Numbered from the stretch's first letter, positions 45,856-64,000 are shown. The stretch is DNA of 64,000 nt from an uncultured Actinomycetota bacterium (GCA_963718235.1 CAVQYR010000001.1:448001-512000); one strand, 5' to 3'. Numbers and translations are program-made. Notes: generated by a model from the sequence alone, not told the origin.

Positions 45856-45879
45856 GTTCTGCGGGTCAGAGGAGAACAG

Positions 45880-47301
45880 TTGACCGCGGACGAACCGATG
45901 AGGCTGGGCGCACAGCGCGACGCCGTGCTCGACCACGCCGCCGACCTCGTCAAGGAAGCATGGCGGTCGTTCGACGACGCTCGACCCACCGAGCCGACCA
46001 TGGACGACCGGGCTCTCGCCCTGCTCGCCGAGCGACTGCCGGAGGGCGCGCTCGACCCGGCGTCCGCACTCGATGAGCTCACGCATGTCCTCGACCGTTC
46101 GATCGCCCAGTCGCGCCCTCGCTACCTGGCCTACGTCGGCTCCAGCGGTCTCGAGATCGGGGCGGTCGCCGACCTCATCGCGGCCTCCTACGACGTCAAC
46201 CTCGCCGTCGACGCTCGGGCGGCCTCTCGGCTGGAGGAGCAGGCCGCCTCTTGGCTCAGTGACTTCCTCGGCTACCCGGCCGCCGGGGGGTGGTTCACCA
46301 GCGGGGGGACGGTCTCGAACCTGTCCGGCCTGGCCGCGGCCCGCGAGCGGGCGCTGCCCGGGTCCCGTCGCGACGGCATGTTCGGCGTCCGGTCCGCGCT
46401 GTACTGCTCGGCCGAGGCCCACTACTCGGTGAGCCGCGGCGCCGAGCTGCTCGGCATGGGCTCTCGGTCGGTGCGCGACATCCCAGTCGACCCGACGACG
46501 CGGCGGATGCGCACCAGTGAGCTGCGCAGCGCGCTCGAGTCCGACCTCGCAGCCGGGGTCGTGCCGGTGGCGGTCGTCGGGACCGCGGGGACGACGCTGA
46601 CCGGGGCCGTCGACCCGCTCGACGAGATCGCCGACATCTGTGCCGAGCACCGGGTCTGGATGCACGTCGACGGGGCCTACGGCCTGCCCGCGGCCGCGAC
46701 GTCGAGACACACCCTCTTCACCGGGCTGGACCGTGCCGACTCGGTGTCGGTCGATGCGCACAAGTGGTTGTTCGTGCCCAAGGCATGCAGCGCTGTACTG
46801 ACCAAGCACCCGTCCGCCTTCGCCGCCGTGTTCTCCCATGACGAGGCGTACATGCCCCACCAGGAGTCGACCCACAACGCGGTCGACCTCACCCTGGAGT
46901 ACTCACGCCCGCTGCGTGCCCTCAAGCTCTGGCTCGCCTTCCGGGTCCACGGGGCGCACGAGGTCCGGTCGGCCCTGGAGCGCAACCTGGGCCAGGCCCG
47001 GCTGTGCTACGACCTGAGCGCCAGGTCCGCCGACTTCGAGGTCATGTCATTGCCGCCAGCACTGTCGGTCGTCCCGATCAGGCACATGGTGCCGGGCTGT
47101 CCCGACGTCGACGCGCACAACCGGCTGCTGGCCCAGAGACTGCAGGACGACGGACGAGTCTTCATCTCGCCCGGGACGATCGACGGGCAGGACTGGCTGC
47201 GCCCGTGCTTCACCAACGTGCGGACGAGAACAAGCGACGTCGAGGTCCTCCTCGAGGTCGTCAGGGAACTGGGGGGCGCCCTGTGCCCCCAGCATCGTTG
47301 A
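45880..47301 (+). CDS. Group II PLP-dependent decarboxylase (aromatic amino acid decarboxylase-like)
   Basis: SGGTVSN, AHYS, GTT.TGAVDPL, HVDGAYG, DAHKW (PLP Lys). Confidence 0.88.
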   Translation: MTADEPMRLGAQRDAVLDHAADLVKEAWRSFDDARPTEPTMDDRALALLAERLPEGALDPASALDELTHVLDRSIAQSRPRYLAYVGSSGLEIGAVADLIAASYDVNLAVDARAASRLEEQAASWLSDFLGYPAAGGWFTSGGTVSNLSGLAAARERALPGSRRDGMFGVRSALYCSAEAHYSVSRGAELLGMGSRSVRDIPVDPTTRRMRTSELRSALESDLAAGVVPVAVVGTAGTTLTGAVDPLDEIADICAEHRVWMHVDGAYGLPAAATSRHTLFTGLDRADSVSVDAHKWLFVPKACSAVLTKHPSAFAAVFSHDEAYMPHQESTHNAVDLTLEYSRPLRALKLWLAFRVHGAHEVRSALERNLGQARLCYDLSARSADFEVMSLPPALSVVPIRHMVPGCPDVDAHNRLLAQRLQDDGRVFISPGTIDGQDWLRPCFTNVRTRTSDVEVLLEVVRELGGALCPQHR

Positions 47302-47320
47302 GTCGAACGAGAGCAGGCTG

Positions 47321-48553
47321 ATGACGGACGACGACCAGCAGCGAGCACCCAGCGATCGGGCCGAGGCCGCGGTCGCGGACTTCCTGGCCGCGGTGACCGT
47401 CGACGACCTGGACCGAGACCCCTACCCGATCTACGCCCGCCTTCGCCGCGAGGCACCAGTGGCTCACGTACCTGCGGTCGACACCTGGTTCGTCACTCGG
47501 TACGACGACGTCACCTTCGTCGCCGAGCACCCCGAGCTGTTCCCCGCCGAGCACGGTGAGTCCCCGGTCGAGGTCACCTTCGGCAAGCCCACCTTGATCA
47601 CCGTCGACGGTCCCGTGCACCACGACCTGCGGCGCAGCTTCGACCCGAACTTCCGCCCACGTCGGGTCCAGGAGTACGTCGACGACCTGGTTCGGCCCTT
47701 GGCCCTTCGTCGCGCCGGCGGGCTGACCGGACTTAGTGAGGCCGAGCTGATGGCGGAGTACTTCGAGCCGATCTCGGTGCTCAGCCTCGCGTCGGTGCTC
47801 GGTCTTGGGGACGTCGACGTCGAGACGCTGCGGCGCTGGTTCCACGGCATGAACCTCGGTGCGACGAACTTCGAGCGCGACCCGGACAAGCAGGCCGAGG
47901 CGGATGCCGTCTGCGCCGAGATCGACGCAGTCGCCGTCCCGCGCATGGAGCGACTCCTGACCGAGCCCGACGACTCGACGATGTCCCACCTGCTCCATGC
48001 GGGCGCTCCGCAGGGTCAGCCGCGGGCGATCGAGCACGTGCTGCCTTCGCTGAAGGTCGCGATCCTGGGCGGGATGCAGGAACCCGGGCACGCCGCCGGC
48101 ACCGTGATGTGTGGTCTGTTCAGCCAGCCGGACCAGCTGGCTGAGGTTCGCTCCGACCCGGTCGCGATGGTGGTCCCGGCGGTCGAGGAGGGCCTGCGGT
48201 GGGTCGCGCCGATCGGCACCCAGTTCCGTACGGCGGGCCGCGACGTCGAGCTCGGCGGAGCCACGATCCCCGCGGGGGCCGGAGTCTCCGCAGTGCTGGC
48301 GTCGGCCAACCGCGACGAGTCGCTGTTCGACGACCCGGACCGGTTCGACCTGCACCGCTCCAACCGCAAGCAGGCCGCCTTCGGCTTCGGCAAGCACTTC
48401 TGCTCCGGCCACTCCTTCGCCCGAAGGCAGATGCAGATCGCGGTCGAGGTGCTGTTCGCCACGTGCCCGGACGTGCGACCGGTACCGGACCGACCGGCCC
48501 GCTTCCGTGGCTGGGAGTTCAGGGCGCCGGCGGAGCTACCGGTCCTGCTGTAG
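47321..48553 (+). CDS. Cytochrome P450, GcoA/CYP255-like (possible aromatic O-demethylase)
   Basis: I-helix LGGMQEPGH, EGLR, FGFGKHFCSG heme motif, F.GW.FR.P tail; resembles GcoA as recalled, not aligned. Confidence 0.85.
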   Translation: MTDDDQQRAPSDRAEAAVADFLAAVTVDDLDRDPYPIYARLRREAPVAHVPAVDTWFVTRYDDVTFVAEHPELFPAEHGESPVEVTFGKPTLITVDGPVHHDLRRSFDPNFRPRRVQEYVDDLVRPLALRRAGGLTGLSEAELMAEYFEPISVLSLASVLGLGDVDVETLRRWFHGMNLGATNFERDPDKQAEADAVCAEIDAVAVPRMERLLTEPDDSTMSHLLHAGAPQGQPRAIEHVLPSLKVAILGGMQEPGHAAGTVMCGLFSQPDQLAEVRSDPVAMVVPAVEEGLRWVAPIGTQFRTAGRDVELGGATIPAGAGVSAVLASANRDESLFDDPDRFDLHRSNRKQAAFGFGKHFCSGHSFARRQMQIAVEVLFATCPDVRPVPDRPARFRGWEFRAPAELPVLL

Positions 48554-49270
48554 CCGGGCGGCGTCGACGAAGGCGCGCACGATCGCCCTCTGCTGCGCGT
48601 CGTCGGCCATGTCCTCCGGGTGCCACTGCACGCCGAGGAACCACCAGCCGTCGCGACCCACGGTCGCGACCGCCTCGACGGTGCCGTCGTCCGCCCTGGC
48701 CAACGTCCGCAGACCCGCACCCAGTGTGTCGATGCGCTGGTGGTGGTAGCACGAGACGGCGAGGTCGTCGGTGACGTCGACTCCCTTGGGCCAGCCGTCG
48801 CCGTCGACCTCGACGGTGTGCCGCACCTCGGTGTGCACGACCTCGCGGTGAGGCTCCTCCATGTGCTGCTCGAGGGTTCCGCCCAACGCCACGTTGACGA
48901 CGTGCAGTCCACGGCAGACCGCGAGCAGCGGAACGCCACGGTCGAGCGCCCAGGTGGCTACTGCGAGGTCCATGGAGTCCTGCACGGTGTCGACGTCGTA
49001 GAGATGCTCGGAGTCGACGTCCTGGCCGTAGCGGCGTGGGTCGAGGTCGCCACCGCCGGGCAGCAGGATCCCGTCGATGAAGCTCAGCCGCTCACCTACC
49101 TCCTGGGGACTGAGTGCGTCGACATCGGGCCACGGCAGCAGGGACAGGGGCTCACCGCCGGCCTCATGGACCATCGTGAGCAGCGCTCGCGCGTTGACGG
49201 CAGCGGCGTACCTGAGGGCCGAGGTGGCGGCGGCGAACCGGGCCGGGATGCCGATCAGCGGGCGACTCAC
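48536..49270 (-). CDS. Gamma-glutamyl-amide hydrolase (PuuD / peptidase C26 family)
   Basis: RPLIGI, LPGGGD, AVCRG, HHQ, GVQWHPE. Confidence 0.9.
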   Translation of the reverse strand: MSRPLIGIPARFAAATSALRYAAAVNARALLTMVHEAGGEPLSLLPWPDVDALSPQEVGERLSFIDGILLPGGGDLDPRRYGQDVDSEHLYDVDTVQDSMDLAVATWALDRGVPLLAVCRGLHVVNVALGGTLEQHMEEPHREVVHTEVRHTVEVDGDGWPKGVDVTDDLAVSCYHHQRIDTLGAGLRTLARADDGTVEAVATVGRDGWWFLGVQWHPEDMADDAQQRAIVRAFVDAARLQQDR

Positions 49271-50514
49271 CCGGCAGCGACCTTCACCGGGAATCGCTTG
49301 ATGCCATGGATGAAGTTCGAACGCACGTGCTCGACCTCACCGTTCAGCTCGAGGTGGACGTCGCGGCGCAGGAGCTCCTCGATCATGATCCGGACCTCCA
49401 GGCGCGCCAGCTGGTTGCCCAGGCAGAAGTGCGGACCGCCCTTGCCGAACGTCACGTGGTCGTTGTTCGTGCGCTTGATGTCGAAGACGTCGGGGGCTTC
49501 GAAGACAGCCTCGTCCCGGTTGCCGGAGGCGTACCACATGACGACTTTGTCGCCTTCTCGGATACTCCGGCCGTGCAGCTCGTGGTCGCGGGTCGCGGTG
49601 CGGCGGAAGTGGTAGACGGGTGAGGCCCAGCGCAGGAACTCCTCGACCGCTGCGGGAAGGAGCTCGGGCTGCTCGCGCAGTGTCTCCGCGGCGTCGGGAT
49701 GCTCGATGAGTGCCCGCATGGTGTGCGACAGCGTGTGCCGGGTCGTCTCGTTGCCAGCGGCGACCAGTAGCAGGAAGTAGTTGTGGAAGTCACGCTCGGA
49801 CAGCGGGACGCCGTCCTCTGGCACCTGGTTCACGAGCTTGCTGACGAGGTCGGTTCCGGAGCCTCCTTGGCGTTCACGGGCGAGGGAGTCGCCGTAGGCG
49901 AAGACCTCGAGTGCGGCAGGGGAGCGGAACGGAAGGTCGCGGTACTGCTCGGACTCCTCGCTCTCCAGCAGGACGTCGGCATAGTCGGGGTCGGTGTTGC
50001 CGACCAGCCGGTTGCTCCACTTGATGAACTGGTCACCCATCTCGTCGGGAACGTCCATCAGGCGGACCAGCACCCGGATCGGGTAGTCGGCGCTGACCGA
50101 CTTCACGAAGTCGAACTCGCCCTGGGCGAACGCAGCGTCCAAGGTGACCGCAGTGAGTCCGCGCAGGAATGTCTCGTAACCGGCCAGGCCACGTGCGGTG
50201 AACTCCCGCTGCAGCAGGCGGCGCAGGGCCCAGTGGCGGGCGCCGTCGGTCTCGAGCATCGACTTGCGCACCTCGAGCTGCGAGGCATCCAGCTCTTCGA
50301 TGCCCACCGCCCCGCGCTCGGAGGAGTACGTCTCGTCGTCCCGGCCGACCGCGACGATGTCGTCGTGGCGGGTCAGCGACCAGAAGCCGTGGTTCGGGGA
50401 AGGCTCGGGGTTCCAGTGGACCGGAGCCTGCTCGCGCAGCACGCGGAACGCGCCCCAGGGGGCGCCACCGGCGAAGAGGTCGAGGTCGGAGAGGTCGATG
50501 TCGTCAGGGGTCAC
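49267..50514 (-). CDS. Cytochrome P450
   Basis: AGNETT, EFLR, FGKGGPHFCLG. Confidence 0.93.
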   Translation of the reverse strand: MTPDDIDLSDLDLFAGGAPWGAFRVLREQAPVHWNPEPSPNHGFWSLTRHDDIVAVGRDDETYSSERGAVGIEELDASQLEVRKSMLETDGARHWALRRLLQREFTARGLAGYETFLRGLTAVTLDAAFAQGEFDFVKSVSADYPIRVLVRLMDVPDEMGDQFIKWSNRLVGNTDPDYADVLLESEESEQYRDLPFRSPAALEVFAYGDSLARERQGGSGTDLVSKLVNQVPEDGVPLSERDFHNYFLLLVAAGNETTRHTLSHTMRALIEHPDAAETLREQPELLPAAVEEFLRWASPVYHFRRTATRDHELHGRSIREGDKVVMWYASGNRDEAVFEAPDVFDIKRTNNDHVTFGKGGPHFCLGNQLARLEVRIMIEELLRRDVHLELNGEVEHVRSNFIHGIKRFPVKVAAG

Positions 50515-50545
50515 GGGGCAGCTCCCGGTCTGGACGCGCGGGCGG

Positions 50546-51895
50546 TCAGAGGTGGTAGGAGTACTCGCGGAACTCCCAGTCGGTGACGAAGCGCTCGAAG
50601 CGCTCGATCTCGTTGCGCTTGTAGGTGACGAACGAGGTCACGAAGTACTCGCCCAGGGCCTCGCCGAGCACCGTGTCGGCCTCCAGCGCGTCGAGGGCGG
50701 CGACGAGGGTCTGCGGCAGCATCGGTGCGGACTCGGGGTCGTAGCCGTAGCCCTCCAGTGGCGCCGGAAGCTCGAGCTTGTCCCGCACGCCGATGTAGAT
50801 CGCGGCACCGACCGCCGCCATGATCAGGTACGGGTTGGCCGTGGCGTCGCCCAGCCGGACCTCCATCCGGGCGCCGGGGCCGCGCTCCGGCGGGACGCGC
50901 AGCATCGCGCTGCGGTTGTCCAGGCCCCAGTCGATGAGCCAGGGGGCCAGGGTGTCCGGGCCGAACCGCTTGTAGGAGTTGATCGTGGGGTTCGCGATGG
51001 CGGCGAGCGCGGGGGCGTGACGCAGGACACCGGCGATCGCGTGGCGTCCGACGGCTGAAAGGCCGTGCTCGCCGTCGGGGTCGCCGAACACGTTGGTTCC
51101 GGCGTCGTCGTTGAGCGAGACGTGGAGGTGGAAGCCGGAGCCGCCCTCGTCGTTGAAGGGCTTGGCCATGAAGGTGGCGAGCATGCCCTCGTAGCGGGCG
51201 ATCTCCTGGACGGCCGACTTCATCCGGAAGGCCCGGTCGGCGGCATCGACCAGCTCGGTGTGGTTGAGGTTGATCTCGAACTGACCTGGACTGAACTCGT
51301 GGTTGGCCGCGGTCACTTGCAGATCTGCGTCACGTAGCCAGCGCAGCGTGCGCAGCAGGATGCCGTTGGGGTCGCCCTTGCGGCCGACGACATAGACGTT
51401 GCCGGTGCTGTCGGCGTACCGGCTGTACCCGCTCGGCGTCGACGGGTCGGGTTCGCAGAGGTAGTACTCGAGCTCGGGTCCCACGATCGCGGTCAGGCCG
51501 ACCTCGGACAGCAGCCCCGCAACGCGGCGTACGACGTTGCGCGGTGACTCCGGTGCGGGAGACCCGTCGACCAGGAAGGCGTCGCCGAGGCAGCTTCGCG
51601 CTCCGGGCTCCCAGGGCATCGGTGCCAAGGTGGCGAAGTCGGGTCTGACCAGCACGTCGGGGAGCCCGGCCTCGATGCCTCCCTGCACCGGGACGACGTC
51701 GCCCATCGGGCTGGTGTGGTAGGTCGCCCGGCAGAAGGCCATTCCGTGTCCAGCGGCGGTCTTGAGCTCATCGATGAGGACGTCACGCCCTCGGTCGACC
51801 CCGATCATGTCGGGGAACGAGACGCGCACGACGTCGATCCCCTCGGAGCGCAGCTGCTCCACAACCTGCCGGACGTCCGCGCTCTCGCTGCCCAC
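50546..51895 (-). CDS. Glutamine synthetase-like gamma-glutamyl ligase (PuuA/GlnA-like)
   Basis: GPELEY, HEFSPGQFE, FMAKP, GSGFHLH, NSYKR, DNRS, EVRLGD; GTG start after GGAGG. Confidence 0.88.
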   Translation of the reverse strand: MGSESADVRQVVEQLRSEGIDVVRVSFPDMIGVDRGRDVLIDELKTAAGHGMAFCRATYHTSPMGDVVPVQGGIEAGLPDVLVRPDFATLAPMPWEPGARSCLGDAFLVDGSPAPESPRNVVRRVAGLLSEVGLTAIVGPELEYYLCEPDPSTPSGYSRYADSTGNVYVVGRKGDPNGILLRTLRWLRDADLQVTAANHEFSPGQFEINLNHTELVDAADRAFRMKSAVQEIARYEGMLATFMAKPFNDEGGSGFHLHVSLNDDAGTNVFGDPDGEHGLSAVGRHAIAGVLRHAPALAAIANPTINSYKRFGPDTLAPWLIDWGLDNRSAMLRVPPERGPGARMEVRLGDATANPYLIMAAVGAAIYIGVRDKLELPAPLEGYGYDPESAPMLPQTLVAALDALEADTVLGEALGEYFVTSFVTYKRNEIERFERFVTDWEFREYSYHL

Positions 51896-51913
51896 GGTGC
51901 CTCCTGGGAACTC

Positions 51914-51927
51914 GTTTGGACCCGAAC
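51914..51927. promoter_or_regulatory. Putative operator, palindrome copy 1
   Basis: GTTTGGACCCGAAC between the divergent ligase and LLM genes. Confidence 0.6.
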
Positions 51928-52029
51928 CATAGTGACGGGGCTCGCCCGGCACAAGGGCTTCGTCCAGTCTTCCGGCACGGCGGCGGCGTGGGTAGGGTCC
52001 GGCGCAGCCCAGTCGTCCAGGAGGCGTCC

Positions 52030-52965
52030 GTGCCCGTTCCGAAGCTGCTCCTCGTGCTCAGCGAGAACTGGACCCTCACCTCGCCCCGAGACCTTCGGGG
52101 TCTGGTCCGGATCGCGGTCGAGGCCGAGCAGGCCGGAGTCGACGGGGTCATGCTGAGCGAGCACGTCGTGCTCGGGGGGTCGGCAGGATCCGAGGGGGTC
52201 ATGGCGAACCCCCGGGACTACGCGCTGCCGGGCAACCAGGAGCCGGACATGCCGTGGCCGAGCTCGCTGGTGCTCCTGTCGGCGATCGCGGCCGTCACCG
52301 AGCGGCTGCGGCTCGTGGCGGGGGCGATCATCGCTCCTCTTCGGCATCCGCTTCTGCTGGCGCGTGAGCTCGGCACCCTGGACCTGCTCGCCGAGGGGCG
52401 GCTCGTCGTGATCCCCACCGTGAGCTGGCACCAGGACGAGTACGACGCGCTGGGGGTGCCCTTCCGCATGCGTGGGGCGATCCTGGACGAGCAGCTGGAG
52501 GTGCTGGGCAAGGCGTGGGGGCCTGGTCCGTTCTCCCACGAGGGGTCGTTCTTCCGGTTCGACGACGTGTGGCTGGAGCCGCACCCGTACCGAGAGCAGG
52601 GTCCGGTGCTGTGGTTCGGGGGGCAGCGGATGCATGGGGCCCTGCTTCGCCGGCTGGTGCGGTACGGCTCCGGGTTCAACCCGCTCGGGCGTCCGAGCGA
52701 CGAGGACCTCGGGCTGCTCCGACAGGGCATGCTGGACGCCGGCCGCGACCCCGGTGAGCTGGAGCTCGTCGGGGGCATCCGCGGCCGCTTCCCTGACGCC
52801 GTGGGTCCAGCGGACCTCGACGAGGCGCTCGCGTCGGTGCCCAGCCAGGTGGAGCGCGGGTTCACCACGCTGTGCTTCAAACCGTCGATGTACATCGACG
52901 ACGCGCGCGACGTCGCACTGCTGTGCCGGTCCATCGCGACCAAGCTGGAGGCGCTCGGCTGCTGA
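52030..52965 (+). CDS. LLM-class flavin/F420-dependent oxidoreductase
   Basis: SEHVV, RHPLLLARELGTLD; GTG start after AGGAGG. Confidence 0.85.
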   Translation: MPVPKLLLVLSENWTLTSPRDLRGLVRIAVEAEQAGVDGVMLSEHVVLGGSAGSEGVMANPRDYALPGNQEPDMPWPSSLVLLSAIAAVTERLRLVAGAIIAPLRHPLLLARELGTLDLLAEGRLVVIPTVSWHQDEYDALGVPFRMRGAILDEQLEVLGKAWGPGPFSHEGSFFRFDDVWLEPHPYREQGPVLWFGGQRMHGALLRRLVRYGSGFNPLGRPSDEDLGLLRQGMLDAGRDPGELELVGGIRGRFPDAVGPADLDEALASVPSQVERGFTTLCFKPSMYIDDARDVALLCRSIATKLEALGC

Positions 52966-53016
52966 GTCCGGATCGCGCGTTTGACCTTCACAGGTCCGGT
53001 GCTGGCGGCTAACCTC

Positions 53017-53030
53017 GTACGGACCCGAAC
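53017..53030. promoter_or_regulatory. Putative operator, palindrome copy 2
   Basis: GTACGGACCCGAAC just upstream of the ADC-like gene. Confidence 0.6.
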
Positions 53031-53043
53031 GAATGGAGCTGTC

Positions 53044-53847
53044 GTGGCTGAGCTCGGTGGATTCCTACCGCCCTACACCCCCTCGGGGCGGTCGGCGCTC
53101 GTCCCCTCCCCACCGTGGCACTACTCCGGCGACCTCCTGACGGTCGAGTACCGGACCGACCCCGAGCGGGTGGCTGCCCTGCTGCCCGCCGGGGTCGATC
53201 CGGCCCCGGCGGACCCAGGCGCGGTCGCGCTGATCTGGGCCGACTGGCAGTCGTGCTCCGACGGCGGTGAGGAGCTGCTCGACCCGGCGCGCTCGCAGTA
53301 CAAGGAGGCGTTCGCCGTCGTCCGCTGCAGCCATGCAGGTGTTACCTACTCGCGGTGCGCGCTGATCTGGGTGACTACCGACTTCGCGATCGGGCGCGGG
53401 CTGCACCAGGGGTACCCGAAGAAGCTCGGGTCGATCCAGATGACCCGGCCCATGCCCCACGGGAAGGCCGCCCCGCGCGTCGGGGCCGGAGGTCGCTTCG
53501 GGGCGACGCTGGCCGCCTACGACCACCGCCTGGCCACCGCCCAGATCACCTTGACCCACCCCAACGAGACCAATGGGTTCGTCAACGACCTCCCGATGCT
53601 GCACAACCGTCAGGTCCGGGCGATCGAGCGGGACGGCGGGCTGGTCCTCGACGAGCTGATCACGATGTCGGGTTACGACGCCGACCTGGGCCAGCCCTGG
53701 GCCGCTGACGCGCAGCTCGAGCTGTCCGACTCGCCCTGGGACGAGCTCGCCTCGGTGCTGCCGGTCCGGGAGATCATCGGCGGGTTCTACCGACAGGTCG
53801 GTGTCAGCTGGAACGGCGGAACCACGGTGGAGCGCCGTCCCATCTGA
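53044..53847 (+). CDS. Acetoacetate decarboxylase-like superfamily protein
   Basis: PPWHYSG, YKEAF, GYPKKLG (Schiff-base Lys). Confidence 0.87.
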   Translation: MAELGGFLPPYTPSGRSALVPSPPWHYSGDLLTVEYRTDPERVAALLPAGVDPAPADPGAVALIWADWQSCSDGGEELLDPARSQYKEAFAVVRCSHAGVTYSRCALIWVTTDFAIGRGLHQGYPKKLGSIQMTRPMPHGKAAPRVGAGGRFGATLAAYDHRLATAQITLTHPNETNGFVNDLPMLHNRQVRAIERDGGLVLDELITMSGYDADLGQPWAADAQLELSDSPWDELASVLPVREIIGGFYRQVGVSWNGGTTVERRPI

Positions 53848-53856
53848 CCCCCTCGC

Positions 53857-55116: not shown

Positions 55117-55142
55117 GTGATCGCCTTCCCGCCGGAAAAGTT

Positions 55143-55156
55143 GTTCGTTGCCAAAC
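55143..55156. promoter_or_regulatory. Putative operator, palindrome copy 3 (degenerate)
   Basis: GTTCGTTGCCAAAC between the divergent P450 and GATase genes. Confidence 0.4.
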
Positions 55157-55229
55157 GTTCTCGCAGCGGGGATGCTAGAGCCTCGATCGGTTGTTCGGAA
55201 GGGCAAGACGTCGCTGATTGGGGTGGGCC

Positions 55230-55940
55230 GTGCGCGTGCTGTTCGTCCAGCAGGACCACGTGTCTCCCACCGGACCGGTGGGAGACGCCTTCGCGTCCCG
55301 GGGATACGACGTCCAGGAGTTCCTGGTCGTTCCCGAGGAGCACTTCCACGCACCAGCCGTCGTAGCCGACTTCCCGGATCCCCTGTCCTATGACGCGCTG
55401 GTGCCGATGGGCGCGCCCTGGTCGGTGTACGACCACGACACGATCGGCACGTGGATTCGCGACGAGATCGACTTCCTGCGCACGGCTCACGAGGCGGGTG
55501 TGCCGATCCTGGGCATCTGCTTCGGCGGCCAGGCGCTGGCGGCCGCGCTGGGCGGTGCGGTCATTCCGGCGGAGCGCCCTGAGGTCGGTTGGACGACGGT
55601 CGACACCGACCGGCCCGACCTGGTCGAACCGGGGCCGTGGTTCCAGTGGCACGGCGACCGGTGGGTGCTGCCCGAGGGTGTGCCCGCCTTCGCCCGCACC
55701 GAGCTCGCCGACCAGGCGTTCGTGGTGGAGCGCTCGCTCGGCCTCCAGTTCCATCCCGAGCTGACGCCCTCGATGCTCGACGGCTGGCTGGACAACGGCG
55801 GAGACGAGCACGCCGCCGCGCTCGGGATCGACGCCCAGCAGCTGCGGGACGAGACAGCGCGCGGAGCCGCCGAGGCGGCCGAGCGAGCAACCCGCCTGGT
55901 CGACGTCTTCCTCGACCGTGTGGCCACGGCCGGTCGGTGA
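55230..55940 (+). CDS. Type 1 glutamine amidotransferase-like protein
   Basis: LGICFGGQ, QWHGD, QFHPE triad motifs. Confidence 0.9.
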   Translation: MRVLFVQQDHVSPTGPVGDAFASRGYDVQEFLVVPEEHFHAPAVVADFPDPLSYDALVPMGAPWSVYDHDTIGTWIRDEIDFLRTAHEAGVPILGICFGGQALAAALGGAVIPAERPEVGWTTVDTDRPDLVEPGPWFQWHGDRWVLPEGVPAFARTELADQAFVVERSLGLQFHPELTPSMLDGWLDNGGDEHAAALGIDAQQLRDETARGAAEAAERATRLVDVFLDRVATAGR

Positions 55941-56083
55941 CGACGGTGCGCGCGCGACCCGCTCCCCACGATGCGCCTGGGCCGGCGTCGACCGACACCT
56001 GCGACCCGGCGTCCTGTCCGTGCCTGGTCGGGACATGCACCCTGAGCCGAGTCGCTCGAGCAGTGGCAGGAGAGGATGAGCTC

Positions 56084-56602
56084 ATGGCCGGCCAGCACAC
56101 GCTCACCGAGACCGAGCGCGCCGTGGGTGACCGACTCGCGTCGATGTCGCTCGACATGGCGGCCATGGCAGCTGTGAGCAACATCTACCGCGCGGCGGGG
56201 GCGATCCGGAACCGGTTCGAGCGAACCGTTCTCGCGCCGGCCGACCTCACCTGGACGGCCTGGGTCGTCCTGTGGGTCGTGTGGATCTGGGAGGACATCG
56301 AGTCCCGGCACGTCGCTACGGAGGCCGGGATCTCCAAGGGGACCCTCACGGGCGTGGCGAGCACCCTGGAGCGTCGCGGTCTGCTTCGCCGCCGGACCCA
56401 CCCCGACGACGCACGGCGAGTTCTGCTCTCGCTCACACCGGCCGGCAAGCGCCTGATGGGAAAGCTGTTCCCGCAGTTCAACGCGCAGGAGGCCGAGGTC
56501 GTCCAGCCGCTCGGCGCACGTGAGACCCAGGTTCTGACCACGGCGCTGCGCAAGATCGTGATGGGCCTGGAGGAGCCGACCGAATCCCCCGCGACTTCTT
56601 GA
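56084..56602 (+). CDS. MarR family transcriptional regulator
   Basis: wHTH ISKGTLTGVASTLERRG...DARRVLLSLTPAG. Confidence 0.9.
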   Translation: MAGQHTLTETERAVGDRLASMSLDMAAMAAVSNIYRAAGAIRNRFERTVLAPADLTWTAWVVLWVVWIWEDIESRHVATEAGISKGTLTGVASTLERRGLLRRRTHPDDARRVLLSLTPAGKRLMGKLFPQFNAQEAEVVQPLGARETQVLTTALRKIVMGLEEPTESPATS

Positions 56603-56638
56603 CGCCCTTCTCGACGTCACATATGTTCGGCCCCGAAC
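56599..56638 (+). promoter_or_regulatory. Sigma70-like promoter overlapped by perfect palindrome (copy 4)
   Basis: TTGACG-17 nt-TATGTT (56599-56627); GTTCGGCCCCGAAC at 56625-56638. Confidence 0.72.
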
Positions 56639-56689
56639 GATTTTCCTCGGGAGCGCACACCCTCGATTCGCCGGCTCGGGAGGCGACAC

Positions 56690-58156
56690 ATGACGATGGC
56701 CACGGTCGACGGCGTCGCGGTCGACACCCGGCACTGGATCGGTGGTCGTCGGGTCGAGAGCGCAGAGACCTTCGACGACGTGTCGCCCATCGACGAGCAG
56801 GTGATCGCCCAGGTCTCGCGGGGCCGTTCCGACGTGGCCGATGCTGCGGTGGCCGCGGCGCGAGACGCGTTTCCCGCGTGGGCGGCCACGTCACCGGAGG
56901 AGCGCTCGCGCATCCTCCATGCCGTTGCGGACGGCGTGGAGGCTCGGCTGGAGGACCTCGCCCGCCTCGAGACCCGTGACAACGGGTCCCTGATCCGGTC
57001 GCACCGTCGCGGCGTCATGCCCCGCGTGGCGATGAACTTCCGGTTCTTCGCCGACCACCTGCTGAAGCTGCACCACGACGACTTCGAGACGCGAGGGCAC
57101 CGCAACCACGTCAGCTGGGACCCGGCCGGGGTCACCGCCGTCATCACGCCGTGGAACGCTCCACTGATGCTGGCCACGTGGCGGATCGCGCCGGCCCTGG
57201 CAGCCGGGAACACCGTGGTGGCCAAGCCGCCGGAGTGGGCGCCGCTCACGGCCTCTCTGTTGGCCGACATCGCTGCTGAGGCCGGGCTGCCCGACGGGGT
57301 GTTCAACGTCGTGCAGGGGTTCGGGGCGGAGGCAGGCGCACCGATCGTGGAGCACCGCGACGTCCGCCGGATCAGCTTCACCGGCTCGGTGCCGACCGCA
57401 CGGACGATCGGTGCCGCTGCAGCCGCCAACGTCACCCCGGTCTCGTTCGAGCTGGGCGGCAAGTCCCCGCTCCTCGTCTTCGAGGACGCCGACCTCGACC
57501 TCGCCGTCGACCTCGCCGTCGAGCAGTACGACAACACGGGCCAGGTGTGCCTGGCGGCCGTCCGTCTCCTCGTCCACGAGTCGCTGGCCGACCAGTTCAC
57601 CGAGGCCTTCCTGGCCAGGGCGGCGTCGATCAGGCAGGGCGATCCCCGCGACGAGACCACCGACATCGGGCCCCTGATCAGCCGCCGGCACTTCGAGCGG
57701 GTCGACGGGTTCGTCCAGCGCGCCAAGGCGAGTGGTGCCACCGCGCTGCTGGGAGGGGGACCCAACGCCGACCTCGGTGGTCTCTACTACCGGCCCACCC
57801 TGTTCGTGGGGGCAGCCCCGGCGAGCGAGATCCTGTGCGACGAGGTGTTCGGTCCGGTGCTCACCCTGCAGACCTTCCGCACCGAGGCCGAGGCCGTGGC
57901 CATGGCCAACGCCACGAGGTACGGCCTGGCCGCGACGCTCGTCACCGGTGACCGGGCACGCGCCGAACGCGTGAGCAGCCAGCTCTCCGCCGGCACCGTC
58001 TGGGTCAACTGCTTCTTCGTGCGTGACCTGAGTGCCCCGTTCGGCGGCAACGGCGACTCCGGGATCGGACGCGAGGGCGGCACCTGGAGCTTCGACTTCT
58101 ACTGCGACGTGAAGAACAGCGTCTTCGCACCGAAGGGATGGATCGACCATGGGTGA
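56690..58156 (+). CDS. Aldehyde dehydrogenase, HpaE-like (hydroxymuconate semialdehyde DH)
   Basis: PWNAP, FTGS, ELGGKSP, GQVCLA, EVFGPV, RDLSAPFGG. Confidence 0.88.
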   Translation: MTMATVDGVAVDTRHWIGGRRVESAETFDDVSPIDEQVIAQVSRGRSDVADAAVAAARDAFPAWAATSPEERSRILHAVADGVEARLEDLARLETRDNGSLIRSHRRGVMPRVAMNFRFFADHLLKLHHDDFETRGHRNHVSWDPAGVTAVITPWNAPLMLATWRIAPALAAGNTVVAKPPEWAPLTASLLADIAAEAGLPDGVFNVVQGFGAEAGAPIVEHRDVRRISFTGSVPTARTIGAAAAANVTPVSFELGGKSPLLVFEDADLDLAVDLAVEQYDNTGQVCLAAVRLLVHESLADQFTEAFLARAASIRQGDPRDETTDIGPLISRRHFERVDGFVQRAKASGATALLGGGPNADLGGLYYRPTLFVGAAPASEILCDEVFGPVLTLQTFRTEAEAVAMANATRYGLAATLVTGDRARAERVSSQLSAGTVWVNCFFVRDLSAPFGGNGDSGIGREGGTWSFDFYCDVKNSVFAPKGWIDHG

Positions 58157-59099
58157 GGTCGTCGGCGCCGGGATCCTCGCGCACGTCCCGACCATCATGC
58201 TTCCCCCGGAGACCCGGTTGGCCCTCAACGCGGGCCGAGAGATCAGTCTCGTCCCGGCATTGCACCAGCTGCGGCGGGAGGTGTTCGAGACCCTCGACTA
58301 CGACACGGTCGTGGTGCTGGACTCCCACTGGTTCACCACGGTGGAGTTCGTCGTGACCGCCCAGGGTCGCCGGGCGGGGCTGTTCACCGCCGAGGAGCTG
58401 CCGAGAGGCATGACCCGGATCCCCTACGACTGGGTCGGTGACCCCGAGCTGGCCGAGACGATGGCTGGGCTTGGGCCCAGGCACAGCACGTGGGTCACCG
58501 CCAACGACGATCCCTACCTCCCGCTCTACTATGCGACCCTGAACCTCTGGAAGTTCCTCGGTGAGGGTCTCGACAAGCGGTGGGTCACCGTCAGTACCTG
58601 CCAGACGGGGGAGACCGAGGACTTCCTGCGCGCCGGTCGCGCCCTGGGCGACGCCATCGAGCAGACTGACCGCAAGGTGCTGCTGGTCGCGTCCGGAGCG
58701 TTGTCGCACACCTTCTGGAAGCTGCGCGAGCTGCGTGACCACGAGGCCAGCGACCCCGAGCACATCCGGACCCCCGAGGCGTACGCCGCTGACCTGGAGC
58801 GGATCGCCTGGTTCGAGCAGGGGGACCACGCCCAGGTACTCGCGACGATGCCGGAGTTCCTGAAGTACAGACCGGAGGCGATGTTCGCCCACTACCTGAT
58901 GATGGCTGGGGCGCTCGGTGAGGACCGGCTGGCGGCTCCTGCGCGCCGGTTCGGCGAGTACGAGAACTCGATCGGAACCGGACAGGTCCACCTCTGGTTC
59001 GACCGGCCGTCGGGCGGTTTCCCCCGACCGGCGAGCACACCGAGCGACCCCGAGTACGTCCGCCAGATGGGTGGACCCGACCTGGTGGCCGCGGGCTGA
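58149..59099 (+). CDS. LigB-class extradiol dioxygenase, HpaD-like
   Basis: HVPT, DSHW, TAEELP, SGALSH, GTGQ motifs as in homoprotocatechuate 2,3-dioxygenase. Confidence 0.85.
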   Translation: MGEVVGAGILAHVPTIMLPPETRLALNAGREISLVPALHQLRREVFETLDYDTVVVLDSHWFTTVEFVVTAQGRRAGLFTAEELPRGMTRIPYDWVGDPELAETMAGLGPRHSTWVTANDDPYLPLYYATLNLWKFLGEGLDKRWVTVSTCQTGETEDFLRAGRALGDAIEQTDRKVLLVASGALSHTFWKLRELRDHEASDPEHIRTPEAYAADLERIAWFEQGDHAQVLATMPEFLKYRPEAMFAHYLMMAGALGEDRLAAPARRFGEYENSIGTGQVHLWFDRPSGGFPRPASTPSDPEYVRQMGGPDLVAAG

Positions 59100-59115
59100 C
59101 CACCGAAGGAGCAGC

Positions 59116-59961
59116 GTGACCGAGTACCGACGCATCGTGCTGGACGGCAACGTCGTCCGGGTCAGGCGTGAGGGCAACACCCTGCGGTCAGCAGACGGGC
59201 GCGAGACGTCGGTCGACGAGGCTATCCATCTCCCGCCGGTCGAGCCGACCAAGATCGTGGCCGTGCACCTGAACCACATCAGCCGGGTGAACGAGTTCCA
59301 GATCGGGCTGCCGACCACGCCGACCTACTTCCACAAGCCCATCTCGTCGTTGAACGCGCACAAGGGCGCGGTGGTACGTCCCGAGCGGTGCAAGTGGCTG
59401 AACTACGAGGGCGAGGTGGCGATCGTCATCGGTCGTACCGCCCGTAACATCTCCCCGGCGGAGGCGGGCGACTACATCGCCGGCTACACGGTGGCCAACG
59501 ACTACGGGCTGCACGACTTCCGCGACACCGACGCGGGGTCGATGCTGCGGGTGAAGGGGTCGGACACGCTGTGTCCACTCGGTCCCGGTCTGGTGACCGA
59601 CTGGGACTTCCGGGGCAAGGGCCTGCGCACCCTGGTCAACGGCGAGGTGCGCCAGGACGGGAACACCGACGAGATGACCTGGGACATGCACTACCTCGTC
59701 GCCGACATCGCCCGCACGATCACCCTGGTACCGGGCGACGTGCTGCTGTCCGGCACGCCGGCGAACTCCCGCACGGTCTACCCGGGCGACGTCGTCGAGG
59801 TGGAGGTCGAGGGGCTGGGAACCCTGAGCAACCACATCGTGCAGGGGCCGGTGCCCATCCGCGACGACGTGGGCGCCCAGCCCACCGAGTCCGAAGAGGT
59901 GCTGTCCACGGCCCTCGGCGGAGACTGGGAGTTTCGGGGCGTGCGCGCTCCACAGCGGTGA
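59116..59961 (+). CDS. Fumarylacetoacetate hydrolase family protein (HpaG-like)
   Basis: FHKP, YEGEV, ANDY, PGDVLLSGTP. Confidence 0.9.
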   Translation: MTEYRRIVLDGNVVRVRREGNTLRSADGRETSVDEAIHLPPVEPTKIVAVHLNHISRVNEFQIGLPTTPTYFHKPISSLNAHKGAVVRPERCKWLNYEGEVAIVIGRTARNISPAEAGDYIAGYTVANDYGLHDFRDTDAGSMLRVKGSDTLCPLGPGLVTDWDFRGKGLRTLVNGEVRQDGNTDEMTWDMHYLVADIARTITLVPGDVLLSGTPANSRTVYPGDVVEVEVEGLGTLSNHIVQGPVPIRDDVGAQPTESEEVLSTALGGDWEFRGVRAPQR

Positions 59962-59999
59962 CATCCACTCACATCGAACAGCAGCGATCAGGAGGGTTC

Positions 60000-60194
60000 A
60001 TGAAGGTCGTCGTCGACATGGACAAGTGCCAGGACCACGGGCAGTGCGCCTTCGAGGCGCCCGAGGTCTTCCAGATCGACGCCGGGACCGGCAAGCTCGT
60101 GGTCCTGACCGACGAGCCGGACGAGGCGCTGCGCGACAAGGTCGAGGCCGCCGCCGACGTCTGCCCGGTCCAGGCCATCGAGATCGTGGACTGA
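60000..60194 (+). CDS. Ferredoxin (P450 partner type)
   Basis: 64 aa; CQDHGQC...CPVQAI; GGAGG RBS. Confidence 0.92.
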   Translation: MKVVVDMDKCQDHGQCAFEAPEVFQIDAGTGKLVVLTDEPDEALRDKVEAAADVCPVQAIEIVD

Positions 60195-60198
60195 CCGG

Positions 60199-61418
60199 AT
60201 GACCCGTGTCGTCGTCGTCGGGGCCGGCATGGCGGGACTGCGCACTTCGGAGTCCCTGCGCAAGAGTGGCTACGACGACGAGCTCGTCGTCGTCGGCGAG
60301 GAGATCCACCTGCCGTACAACCGGCCCCCGCTGTCCAAGGAGGTGCTGGCCGCAGAGGTGCACCACGAGAAGGTGGCCTTTCCGCTGCGCACTGCCCTGG
60401 GCGAGATCGACTGGCGGCTCGGCTGCCGGGCCACGGGACTCGACCGGGACAGGCGCGCAGTCACCCTCGACGACGGCGAAGTGCTGGAGTTCGACGGGCT
60501 GGTGGTGGCCACCGGCCTCCGTCCACGGCGCCTCGACCTGCCCGGCCCGCCGCCCGACCCGGCAGCGGGTCGCCATGTCCTGCGGACGCTGGATGACGCG
60601 GCCCGACTGCGCGACGAGCTCGTCCCGGGAGCCCGGGTCGTCGTGCTCGGGGCCGGCTTCATCGGCTGCGAGGTCGCTGCCACGGCCCGCGGACTCGGCT
60701 GCGACGTCGTCAGTGTGGCGATCGACCCCTTCCCGATGGTGCGTCCGCTGGGTCCTGCTCTGGGCGCGGAGATGCAGCGTCGGCACGAGGAGCAGGGCGT
60801 GCGGTTCCGGCTCGGCGTGGGGATCGTCGGGTACACCGGCGACGACCGAGTCACGGGTGTGGAGCTCGCCAACGGCGAGACCCTGCGGGCCGATGTGGTC
60901 GTCGAGGCGATCAGCAGCCACTGCAACACCGAGTGGCTGGCGGGCTCGGGGTATGACCTCACGGACGGGCTCTCTGTGCGACAACGTGCTGCGGGTGGTG
61001 CGTCGAGGACGGTGTCGTGGAGGACGGAGTCCACGTCGTCGGTGACCTTGCACGCTTCCCCAACCCGCTCTTCGACGACGTCCCGCGTCGGGTCGAGCAC
61101 TGGAACATCCCTACCGAGACGGGTAAGCGGGTCGGGCCCGCCTTGGCGGCGTACCTGCGTGGTGACGGCTACGACGAGGCGCTCAGCAAGTCGTTTGCGC
61201 CCCTTCCGGCGTTCTGGTCCGACCAGTACGACATTCGGCTCCAGTCCTACGGCATGCCCGGCCTGGCCGACCCCGAGGGGATCGCGGTCCTCGAGGGTGA
61301 CCTGTCCGGGGAGGTCGTGGTCGGGTACCACCGCGGCGACATTCTCGTGGGTGTGGTCGGCCTGGGCATGCTGCCACGCGTCAACAGCTATCGGCCACTG
61401 ATCGGCACGGTTGCATAA
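60199..61418 (+). pseudogene. Ferredoxin reductase with apparent frameshifts at ~60970-61015
   Basis: GAGMAG, YNRPPLSK, GAGFIGCE in one frame; VGDLAR, RVEHW, FWSDQY in another; may be a sequencing error. Confidence 0.85.
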
Positions 61419-61456
61419 CGGCTCGGGCGAACTGGTGAGTAGTTCCCTCGAAAGCC

Positions 61457-61513
61457 TTGACAAGACCCCGTAATCCCGAGACTCTCGGCGCAATCTTTCG
61501 TTCGGCCCCATAC
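61457..61513 (+). promoter_or_regulatory. TTGACA plus palindrome copy 5 upstream of the permease
   Basis: TTGACA at 61457-61462; GTTCGGCCCCATAC at 61500-61513. Confidence 0.6.
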
Positions 61514-61544
61514 GAAACCAGACCCCTCGACTCTGGAGAACCGC

Positions 61545-63094
61545 ATGGACCAGCTCAAGCCCGCACCCGAAGAGACCGCTGGTACCGCCCTGCGCAAGGG
61601 CAGGCTCGGCGTTGCCGGCGTCGTCTTCTTCGTCGTCGCAGCGGCCGCTCCCCTGGTGGGCATGACCGGTGCGGTGCCGGTGGCCATCGTGCTCGGCAAC
61701 GGGGCTGCAGTTCCCGGCGCCTACGTCGCAGTCGGCATCACGCTGCTGCTGTTCAGCGTCGGCTACGCCGCGATGAGCCACCGGGTGACCAACACCGGTG
61801 CCTTCTTCGCCTACGTGGGTCGGGGTCTGGGCATCGGCCCCGGCGTGGGAAGCGCCTTCGTGTCGCTCGTGGCGTACTTGGCCGTCCAGCTGGCGATCTT
61901 TGGCTTCTTCGGCGCGGTCGCCTCCGCGGAGCTTGCCGACAAGATCAGCATCGACTGGCCCTGGTACGTGGTGGAGCCTGATCGCGTGGGCTCTCGTGAC
62001 CGCACTCTCGCTCTTCAGCGTCGATGTCGGCGCCAAGGTGCTCGGGGTCTTCATGACTTTGGAGGTGCTGTCACTGTTCATCATGGCGCTCGCTGTCCTC
62101 TTTACCGGCGGCGGCCCCGACGGGTTCGATCTCAACGCCTCCTTCGCCCCTAACAACGTTCTCGTGGGCGGGCTTGGCGGGACCGCGGGCATTGCGCTGG
62201 CTTTTGCTTTCGCCTCCTACATCGGATTCGAGGCCACCGCGATCTACGGTGAGGAGTCCAAGGACCCGAAGCGGACTGTCCCGAGAGCCACGTACATCGC
62301 GGTCATCCTGATCACGGTCCTGTTCGGCCTTTCGACCTTCGCGATCGTCACGGCGCTCGGCTCGAAGGACGTCGTGAACCAGGTCGTGGCGACTAGCTGG
62401 AGACGACTTGGGCAACCCGGCCAACGTCGTGTTCACCGTGGCCGAGCAGAGCGTCGGCGACTGGCTCGGGAGCTGGGCCGGGTCGTTGGTCTCGAACACC
62501 ATGGAGTGGCTGGTCCTGAGCAGTCTGTTCGCCGGGCTCCTGGCTTTTCAGAATTCGGCAGCTCGCTACTTCTTCTCCATGGGCCGGGCCGGCGTCCTGC
62601 CCACCGCGTTGGACCGGGTGAACAAGTGGGGAGCGCCGCAGGTGGCCACTCTCACGACCTCGGTGATTTCCCTTGCGGTGATCGTCACCTTCTGGCTGAC
62701 CGACAAGGACCCCGTCACCAACCTGTTCTTCTGGTTCAGCGGGCTGGCGGTGCTGGCCATCGTGCTCGTCGAGATCCTCGTCAGCATCGCCGTCATCGCC
62801 TACTTCACCCGGACCAAGGAGGACAAGCGGGTCTGGAACACGATCATCGCGCCCGTTCTTGCGATCATCGGGCTCGCGGTAGGGATGTATCTGCTGATGT
62901 CCCGCTTTGGGCTGCTCGGCGGCTCCGACACGATCCAGAGCACAGTGGACCCAACGACGCAGGCCTGGGGGCTGAGCGCCCTTGGCTGGACGCTCGTCCT
63001 GCTGCCGTTCGCTATGTTCTTGATCGGCTGGGTGATCGGTCTGCTGCGCAAGTCCGAGGAGAACGAGGACGCCGTCAAGGACCTCGTCACCTGA
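61545..63094 (+). pseudogene. APC-family amine/amino acid permease, frameshifted near 61965 and 62400
   Basis: VAAAAPL, GAFFAYV, SYIGFEA...EE.KDP, RYFFSMGRAG spread over three consecutive frames; may be a sequencing error. Confidence 0.85.
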
Positions 63095-63632: not shown

Positions 63633-63689
63633 GAAGTCGTACCACGGTCTGCCGGTACCGGTCGATGAGGTTGTCCCAGGAGCAAGCCC

Positions 63690-64000
63690 TCAGGCGGAGA
63701 AGTCCAGCGACTGGTCGTCCACGGCGACCACGGTCCGCTGCATCCCGTCGGTGTCGGTCAACGCGTAGGCGGGGATGAGGACGGCCGAGCCGTCGGGCTG
63801 GGTGTAGAGGGCGAGCCCGAGCCGAGCCCGGGTGATCGTCACCTGCTGGACCGGCCAGCCGAAGTCGTCGCCTGCCCGCACGGTCGGCGGGAGCTTTGGG
63901 CTCGCCACGCCCGTGGCGGCACCGTCGGAGGCGCTGCCGCCACCCGACAGGGTCGAGACGGGACGGTCGGCTGCTGCAGCGATGCCCATCGGCATCGGAC
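63690..64000 (-). CDS. Hypothetical protein, 5' end outside window
   Basis: Open frame running to the window edge, ending LIPAYALTD...VVAVDD..LDF. Confidence 0.6.
   Translation of the reverse strand, partial: PMPMGIAAAADRPVSTLSGGGSASDGAATGVASPKLPPTVRAGDDFGWPVQQVTITRARLGLALYTQPDGSAVLIPAYALTDTDGMQRTVVAVDDQSLDFSA

Follow-up and report, generated by a model that had tools for sequence, protein, structure and literature searches.

A predicted MarR-controlled gene cluster of actinobacteria that may combine gamma-glutamylation, P450 oxidation and extradiol ring cleavage in the use of arylalkylamines

We analyzed a stretch of 64,000 nucleotides from an uncultured Actinomycetota bacterium (GCA_963718235.1 CAVQYR010000001.1:448001-512000), hereafter the window, in which a block of genes encodes a glutamine synthetase (GS)-like ligase, cytochromes P450 with their redox partners, two candidate glutamyl hydrolases and an extradiol ring-cleavage module. 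With a probability that we put at roughly one half, positions 48536–63094 form a regulon under MarR control that serves the catabolism of an arylalkylamine, phenolic or methoxy-phenolic and most likely of the tyramine, dopamine or phenylethylamine type. The grouping of the genes is far beyond chance, as seen from their co-conservation and from operator counts, while the substrate, each chemical step and the order of steps are what we infer from the sequence. The window has a G+C content of 70%; genes were chosen by third-position G+C (GC3) and then scanned with Pfam and NCBIfam, and start codons were taken from reading the sequence, with that of the luciferase-like (LLM) oxidoreductase uncertain and that of the FAA-hydrolase-family (FAH) enzyme inferred. 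Pfam and NCBIfam recovered every gene class named in a preliminary description of this DNA, each near the place given for it.

Relatives of the ligase were sought in a collection in which each species is represented by a single genome, and at least 567 were confirmed by tblastn among at least 598 pattern matches. Cultured strains with such a relative include Longivirga aurantiaca CGMCC 4.7317, Actinomadura rudentiformis HMC1 and Streptomyces ossamyceticus NRRL B-3822. The best 80 of these at least 567 loci, with ligases 61–77% identical to that of the window, were fetched and searched with all window proteins. They include metagenome-assembled genomes labelled Actinomycetes, Nanopelagicales, Streptosporangiaceae and Kineosporiaceae, as well as Longivirga, Kineosporia, Blastococcus, Actinomadura, Streptomyces, Spirillospora, Microtetraspora and Embleya. 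Because a GC3-based filter of open reading frames (ORFs) missed some genes, finding the ligase itself in only 71 of the 80 loci, gene counts were taken from tblastn; unless given out of 80, they refer to the 61 loci that span at least 15 kb. The ADC-family enzyme and the LigB-type dioxygenase were each found in 59 of the 61 loci, a P450 of the P450B/C type in 58, the FAH enzyme in 56, the aldehyde dehydrogenase (ALDH) in 52 and the MarR-family regulator in 50. Lower counts were obtained for the LLM oxidoreductase (36), the class I glutamine amidotransferase (GATase)-like hydrolase (33), the ferredoxin reductase (26), the ferredoxin (25) and the Peptidase_C26 hydrolase (23). All five of the ADC-family enzyme, P450B/C-type P450, LigB, FAH and ALDH accompany the ligase in 49 of the 61 loci. 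A single P450B/C-type copy is the rule (51/61), with two copies in seven loci and none in three. The co-conservation on which the preliminary description had made its pathway depend thus holds for the core genes across many actinobacteria, in view of the at least 567 relatives of the ligase and the five-enzyme set.

The second line of evidence is a shared operator. A palindromic 14-bp core, GTTYG-N4-CRAAC, was recognized by reading the promoter gaps of the window, which contains three exact copies compared with 0.16 expected, and one-mismatch copies in two further gaps. Since the pattern itself had been derived from the window, it was tested on the relatives, where 163 sites were found in 71 of the 80 loci against 2.5 expected from shuffles, an enrichment of about 65-fold; 160 of the 163 lie outside matched genes and adjoin genes of the cluster. 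The flanks of these 163 sites widen the consensus to an 18-bp palindrome, TCGTTYGG-NN-CCRAACGA. Allowing up to three mismatches, the 18-bp consensus occurs in the whole window at exactly five sites, all of them in promoter gaps of the cluster, compared with 1.12 expected, and none of 100 shuffles reached five. O1 (51912–51929; core exact, one mismatch to the 18-bp consensus) lies between the minus-strand operon of the GS-like ligase, P450B and the C26 hydrolase and the plus-strand LLM gene. O2 (53015–53032; one mismatch) is located in the 78-nt gap between the LLM and ADC-like genes, just upstream of the latter and beside its GGAG and the GTG start at 53044. O3 (55141–55158; core exact, three mismatches) separates P450C on the minus strand from the GATase gene, followed by MarR, on the plus strand, O4 (56623–56640; core exact, two mismatches) stands upstream of the ALDH-LigB-FAH-ferredoxin-reductase operon, and O5 (61498–61515; one mismatch) lies upstream of the permease in the gap 61419–61544. 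The operator escaped a generic repeat search of 44000–63800, whose sole outcome was the P450B/P450C paralogy.

The regulator (56084–56602, +; Pfam MarR) is HpaR-like, reaching 60 bits with the HpaR model against a cut-off of 121. It belongs to the MarR winged-helix family and a conserved palindrome occupies the promoters of the cluster, which suggests that the protein is likely a repressor acting at the predicted operators O1–O5. Given the five promoter-gap palindromes and the enrichment of the core in relatives, the cluster is most likely one MarR regulon. The gene had been placed at the end of the block in the preliminary description; it sits mid-block, and the gene just beyond the end encodes a GNAT-family protein (63087–63632, −; Pfam).

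We treat glutamylation, P450 oxidation and extradiol cleavage as parts of one pathway because the operator is shared and because the redox partners of the P450s are encoded in the ring-cleavage operon, and we favor a phenolic or methoxy-phenolic arylalkylamine as substrate because the clusters repeatedly contain O-demethylases, either CYP255-like or VanA-type, and also aromatic-type decarboxylases. In the scheme that we envisage, the APC permease would bring the amine into the cell, and the GS-like ligase would convert it with ATP and glutamate to the N-γ-glutamyl amide. P450B and P450C, working with the ferredoxin and its reductase, would hydroxylate the ring to a catechol, and a methoxy group, if present, would be removed by the CYP255-like P450A; in other genomes a VanA/VanB-type Rieske enzyme may carry out the demethylation instead. 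The LigB-type dioxygenase would cleave the ring adjacent to the diol, the HpaE-like ALDH would oxidize the ring-opened semialdehyde, the HpaG-like FAH would isomerize and decarboxylate, and the ADC-family enzyme would perform hydration followed by retro-aldol cleavage in place of the missing HpaH and HpaI. With carbon bookkeeping that follows the established Hpa pathway, a 3,4-dihydroxyphenyl ring with a glutamylated ethylamine side chain (-CH2-CH2-NH-γ-Glu) would lead to pyruvate, CO2 and γ-glutamyl-4-aminobutanal, which an ALDH together with C26 or the GATase could convert to γ-aminobutyrate (GABA) and glutamate in the manner of the Puu pathway. As PuuC acts on this aldehyde and PuuD on the corresponding acid, the scheme would explain why C26, PuuC-like ALDH and GabT genes are found as neighbors. 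The glutamyl tag may serve to keep the amine from cyclizing onto an o-quinone or onto the ring-opened aldehyde, in cyclizations of the aminochrome or betalamic-acid type; DOPA cyclizes in this way in betalamic-acid formation. That arylethylamines are degraded in exactly this fashion, with the glutamyl group kept through ring hydroxylation and extradiol cleavage, an ADC-family enzyme acting as hydratase-aldolase and the products joining the Puu/GABA route, is a tentative proposal that we consider possible but doubtful.

The gene of the GS-like ligase, a candidate γ-glutamyl-amine synthetase (50546–51895, −), encodes a product of 449 amino acids that is named 'glutamine synthetase family protein' in the protein collection. 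The protein has a full-length Gln-synt_C domain (334 bits) and stays under all NCBIfam equivalog cut-offs, that of true GS included; the PuuA-type γ-glutamylputrescine synthetase model NF045547 gave 263 bits, where the cut-off is 650. Among PDB entries, true GS and amine ligases are about equally distant from it, and its 3.17-Mb, 95%-complete genome has four other GS-family genes, none of them more than 41% identical to it. A reading of PDB entry 7cql as the aniline enzyme was rejected, since in the accessible text it is cited by a paper on γ-glutamylmethylamide synthetase. The ligase gene is followed by P450B (49267–50514, −) and by the putative PuuD-like γ-glutamyl hydrolase (48536–49270, −; Peptidase_C26 160 bits), the last gene of the operon, whose best NCBIfam model is γ-glutamyl-GABA hydrolase (PuuD) with 83.5 bits against a cut-off of 266. 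The stand-alone class I GATase-like hydrolase (55230–55940, +; Pfam GATase) matches PDB 7d54 with 238 bits, and the accessible part of PMC12958103 describes 7D54 as a stand-alone glutaminase of Mycolicibacterium smegmatis crystallized with Gln.

The three P450s fall into two groups. P450A (47321–48553, +), an accessory gene and a CYP255-like homologue of aromatic O-demethylases, matches 8u09 with 320 bits and GcoA ('aromatic O-demethylase') with 292–295 bits over its whole length, in a family that has no curated threshold; 8U09 is cited in papers on the syringol O-demethylase SyoA, as far as their accessible text goes. P450B and P450C (53857–55116, −; Pfam p450) are paralogues with 52% identity. 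The best PDB match of P450B is the reconstructed ancestor CYP125MRCA (393 bits), which the accessible text of PMC12100521 presents as a terminal hydroxylase of sterols, followed by the extant enzymes CYP124, CYP268 and CYP125 at 231–238 bits (CYP125 231) and then by CYP153-type alkane hydroxylases; P450B has a 12-residue insertion in the aligned F/G region. According to Pfam and NCBIfam, the neighborhood of P450B and P450C holds amine and ring-cleavage genes and no sterol genes, and part of the wider CYP125 family in Actinomycetota may, to judge from this setting, have a non-sterol role. The O-demethylation that the preliminary description had assigned to the P450s is therefore plausible for P450A, which by its PDB scores is a close relative of aromatic O-demethylases; P450B and P450C resemble the aliphatic terminal hydroxylases CYP125 and CYP124 rather than known aromatic hydroxylases. 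The redox partners, a small ferredoxin (60000–60194, +; Fer4_13 58 bits) and a ferredoxin-NAD(P) reductase (60199–61418, +; Pyr_redox_2 and Reductase_C), are encoded inside the ALDH-LigB-FAH operon.

This operon opens with the HpaE-like ALDH (56690–58156, +; Aldedh 534 bits), which scores 527 bits with the HpaE model against a cut-off of 638 and 360 bits with the PuuC model against 850. The HpaD-like extradiol dioxygenase of the LigB type (58149–59099, +; Pfam LigB), single-copy in its genome, gives 122 bits with the HpaD_Fe model compared with a cut-off of 316; its best PDB relative is the 3,4-dihydroxyphenylacetate 2,3-dioxygenase 8iq8 (87 bits), followed by 2-aminophenol dioxygenase beta subunits (36–44 bits). 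The FAH enzyme (about 59119–59961, +; FAA_hydrolase 188 bits) resembles the C-terminal domain of HpaG, an isomerase/decarboxylase, and reaches 206 bits with the corresponding model, whose cut-off is 276. No match to HpaB, HpaH or HpaI was found at E ≤ 0.001 in the genome that carries the window, and since this genome is 95% complete, their absence is likely rather than proven. The ADC-family enzyme (53044–53847, +) is our candidate for the hydratase/retro-aldolase. By Pfam it has the ADC fold, with 179 bits against a cut-off of 29.8, and the MppR equivalog model gave 182 bits, under its cut-off of 380; in the PDB it matches MppR (156 bits) and 4zbo/6eej, entered as 'acetoacetate decarboxylase' (146 bits). 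These matches we take to be aldolase-dehydratases rather than decarboxylases, and Sbi00515 reportedly has aldolase-dehydratase activity.

The genes that accompany the cluster elsewhere were examined by clustering those ORFs of the relatives that had no match in the window, naming representatives with NCBIfam and Pfam and counting them by tblastn. A VanA_C-type Rieske oxygenase was found in 11 of the 80 loci, always with a VanB-like reductase, and a decarboxylase that is nearest to the MfnA tyrosine decarboxylase model and distinct from the one in the window in 15. Fourteen loci have a second ALDH, with no counterpart in the window, whose best model is PuuC (549 bits), and about 11 have a GabT-type transaminase within 10 kb, for which the representative alone was checked (770 bits, with a cut-off of 639). 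The related genera Actinomadura and Streptomyces supply many of the cases of GabT and the PuuC-like ALDH, which therefore count as few independent events. The genome of the window encodes a GabT above the cut-off on its other contig. Orthologues of the window's permease (≥55% identity) occur in nine of the 80 loci and a different APC permease in 16. P450A orthologues, where present, sit within the cluster. In or beside some clusters we also observed Amidohydro_2 (LigW/ACMSD-type; 6/80) or Amidohydro_3 (6/80) genes (loci L016, L017, L020, L021, L024, L008; L057, L059, L069, L070, L072, L074).

Several observations weigh against the catabolic regulon proposed here. None of the pathway enzymes reaches the curated equivalog cut-off of the named family closest to it, so that the named activities are analogies only. 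The closest relatives of P450B and P450C, enzymes of the CYP125/124/153 type, hydroxylate terminal methyl groups of aliphatic substrates, and the action on an aromatic ring suggested for the two P450s is one of the weakest links of the scheme. Another is that two separate hydrolases are left unexplained, and in 22 of the 61 loci neither C26 nor the GATase was seen within 10 kb. The LLM oxidoreductase (about 52030–52965, +; Bac_luciferase 120 bits), which is probably F420-dependent, likewise has no place in the scheme; it reaches 165.3 bits with TIGR03619, whose cut-off is 166.9, and its genome encodes CofD for F420 synthesis. GabT and the PuuC-like ALDH are each present in a minority of loci. 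Two genes lie outside the conserved core: P450A, with orthologues (≥50% identity) in seven of the 80 loci, and the group II decarboxylase dependent on pyridoxal phosphate (PLP) (45880–47301, +; Pyridoxal_deC 178 bits), an accessory neighbor whose matches, in 15 of the 80, reach only 29–35% identity. The whole-window search gave no 18-bp site ahead of the decarboxylase-P450A unit, and for this reason the conserved unit is taken as 48536–63094. An arylalkylamine derived by decarboxylation, as the preliminary description had it, thus agrees with the kinship of the enzyme, whose best PDB relatives are 4obu (197 bits) and the DOPA decarboxylase 7xin (177 bits) and which is nearest to aromatic amino acid decarboxylases, and is at odds with its lack of conservation with the core and of an operator.

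The similarity of P450B and P450C to aliphatic terminal hydroxylases raises the question of whether the block holds two adjacent pathways, an Ipu/Pip-type module for aliphatic or alicyclic amines and a homoprotocatechuate-type meta-cleavage module for aromatic acids. The GS-P450B-C26 genes do form a minus-strand operon of their own, and to our knowledge the P450/monooxygenase γ-glutamyl pathways described, those for isopropylamine and piperidine, act on aliphatic carbon. However, both modules have copies of one operator in front of them, in the window as well as in the relatives, the ring-cleavage operon includes the genes for the P450 redox partners, the two modules occur together in 49 of the 61 loci, and the genome offers no HpaB-type match that could feed the cleavage module. 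We therefore hold two separate pathways to be unlikely.

Less likely still, in our view, is a route of the aniline/aminophenol type, in which, as in the tdn/atd and 1-naphthylamine systems, glutamate would be attached to a ring-bound amine, with P450s in place of the Rieske dioxygenase. Those systems are marked by a GS-like ligase accompanied by a stand-alone class I GATase, according to the accessible text of PMC4539516 and PMC11335346, and the second-best PDB relatives of LigB are beta subunits of 2-aminophenol 1,6-dioxygenase. The best LigB relative is, however, a dihydroxyphenylacetate dioxygenase, decarboxylases of the aromatic-amino-acid type recur (15/80 loci), and PuuC-like ALDH and GabT suggest an amino aldehyde of four carbons; moreover, many soil and freshwater lineages carry the cluster, and it is not limited to isolates from polluted sites. 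In another variant, tyrosine or DOPA could be glutamylated on the α-amine, and the same ring cleavage would then give γ-glutamyl-glutamate semialdehyde and, in the end, two glutamates. The carbon bookkeeping of this variant, derived from the established Hpa pathway, is equally good, and the permeases are of the amino-acid (APC) type, but decarboxylases recur in the clusters, GabT is a neighbor in about 11 of the 80 loci, and the GS-family ligases known act on amines rather than on α-amino acids, which makes this variant quite improbable. Least probable is a biosynthetic cluster for a γ-glutamyl catecholamine-derived or ring-opened, betalamic-acid-like metabolite, for although LigB-family enzymes make betalamic acid from DOPA, MppR of the ADC family is biosynthetic by its model name and a GNAT gene lies next door, the block scans gave no nonribosomal peptide synthetase, polyketide synthase or tailoring genes, the GNAT gene is kept in just two of the 80 loci, and the cluster has an importer-type permease, a MarR/HpaR-like repressor and a full set of semialdehyde dehydrogenase and decarboxylase.

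Two genes of the regulon, the reductase and the APC permease (61545–63094, +), are broken in the window, each passing through three reading frames, with the two Pfam domains of the reductase in different frames and the AA_permease matches of the permease spread over three. Logan contigs of four public freshwater-sediment metagenome runs from one study (X1–X4), which may derive from the very sample behind the genome assembly, were aligned to 59900–63200 and gave 5, 5, 7 and 4 pieces that are at least 99% alike. In the reductase, one letter is absent at 60974 and one at 61003, in one contig each of X2 and X3; in the permease, letter 61970 is absent in one contig of X1 and letter 62392 in one of X4. 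The depths of the runs are all below 5, and part of the X2 cover at 61970 is without the deletion. The contig pieces that lack the four letters show no other differences from the window, and removal of the four letters yields single frames of 405 amino acids for the reductase and 515 for the permease, ending at existing stops. Elsewhere in the window a beta-lactamase-family gene (PF00144) is split over two frames (34173–34913 and 34868–35395, +), and the search of the genome for the GabT family gave several adjacent split matches. The frame breaks are probably assembly errors, in an assembly that probably carries scattered single-letter errors. Since the contig deletions and the split genes elsewhere fit such errors, both genes are treated as intact in nature.

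The decarboxylase and P450A are preceded by a gene of the endonuclease/exonuclease/phosphatase family; the three genes (44278–48553, +) are 24 and 19 nt apart and may form one transcription unit, an odd combination. The endonuclease/phosphatase-family gene was found near the ligase in none of the 80 loci. Further upstream, 38761–44236 encodes an AMP-binding enzyme, an amidase, a second LLM oxidoreductase, a pirin and a TANGO2-family protein. An amidase that frees an amine from an amide would suit the pathway, though nothing supports that role, and none of these upstream genes is conserved beside the cluster in the 80 loci. The genome, actinobacterial and high in G+C, also encodes a heliorhodopsin, at 33199–34113 (+; Pfam Heliorhodopsin 344 bits).

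Plants, animals and microbes commonly produce biogenic aromatic amines, and the textbook bacterial routes for these compounds begin with an amine oxidase or a transaminase. In agreement with the preliminary description, no match to amine oxidase, transaminase or HpaB-type families was found in the ORFs of the block that were scanned, which do not include every small ORF. The literature is equally consistent with that description in that no characterized orthologous pathway was found in the full texts searched, a body that leaves subscription journals largely outside; in the same body no description was found of a GS-like ligase, a P450 and extradiol cleavage in one pathway, and γ-glutamyl-tyramine is met there only on the way to methanofuran/methylofuran, as an intermediate, or in lists from metabolomics. 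A riboflavin/lumichrome pathway with a P450, a Rieske enzyme and an extradiol dioxygenase (PMC12746152) was rejected as a counterpart, as its accessible text names a thiamin-dependent decarboxylase, a xanthine oxidase and a Rieske dioxygenase and no glutamine-synthetase-type ligase. If the arylalkylamine regulon is real, it would represent a new piece of carbon and nitrogen cycling, in which glutamate-protected nitrogen is carried through ring cleavage, and would imply a widespread, undescribed use of biogenic aromatic amines by soil and freshwater actinobacteria, including Streptomyces, Actinomadura and abundant uncultured lineages. It would also give functions to a fifth kind of actinobacterial GS-like ligase, to an ADC-family aldolase and to a CYP255-like O-demethylase, possibly one active on an amine conjugate, and it would give CYP125-like P450s a role outside sterol metabolism. 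A ready biosensor for the true substrate would be available in the operator together with the MarR protein.

Among known systems, the Puu pathway of E. coli is alike in its GS-family ligase, in a Peptidase_C26 hydrolase (here with γ-glutamyl-GABA hydrolase as its best model) and in its importer; PuuC-like ALDH in 14 of the 80 relatives and GabT in about 11 extend the likeness, and the proposed end product, γ-glutamyl-4-aminobutanal, is a Puu intermediate. The cluster differs from Puu in placing P450s and an aromatic ring-cleavage module between ligation and hydrolysis and in having a MarR-type regulator, and no PuuB-type FAD oxidase, amine oxidase or DAO was detected among the scanned ORFs of 44278–63632, apart from a weak partial DAO match inside the reductase. 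The aniline and 1-naphthylamine systems (tdn/atd, npa; PMC4539516, PMC11335346), as far as the accessible text describes them, likewise activate an aromatic amine with a GS-like ligase before ring oxygenation and encode a stand-alone class I GATase-like hydrolase alongside, whereas their oxygenase is a two-subunit Rieske dioxygenase that removes the nitrogen, in place of the P450s, ferredoxin and reductase found here. The nitrogen in the present case is probably on a side chain; no Rieske domain, and no Rieske alpha/beta pair, was found in the scanned ORFs of the block, and the VanA-type enzyme of the relatives is single-subunit.

The Ipu and Pip pathways of Pseudomonas share the sequence of glutamylation, oxidation of the amide by a P450 or monooxygenase and hydrolysis, which fits the GS-P450B-C26 operon, but they act on aliphatic or alicyclic substrates and have no ring-cleavage genes. 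With Hpa meta-cleavage the cluster shares HpaD-, HpaE- and HpaG-C-like genes in one operon and an HpaR-like MarR regulator; it differs in scores under the equivalog cut-offs, in the absence of HpaB, HpaH and HpaI matches from the genome and in the ADC-family enzyme present instead, and an HpaF-type gene was not seen in the block. P450A resembles the CYP255 enzymes GcoA and SyoA (PMC6021390, PMC11842817, in their accessible text), with 292–320 bits to their structures, but unlike them it adjoins a decarboxylase and a γ-glutamyl cluster rather than lignin-monomer genes, and no GcoB-type fused reductase was seen. The logic of the cluster resembles that of Puu, of aniline and 1-naphthylamine degradation, of Ipu/Pip and of Hpa, although its genes fall outside the definition of each of these pathways.

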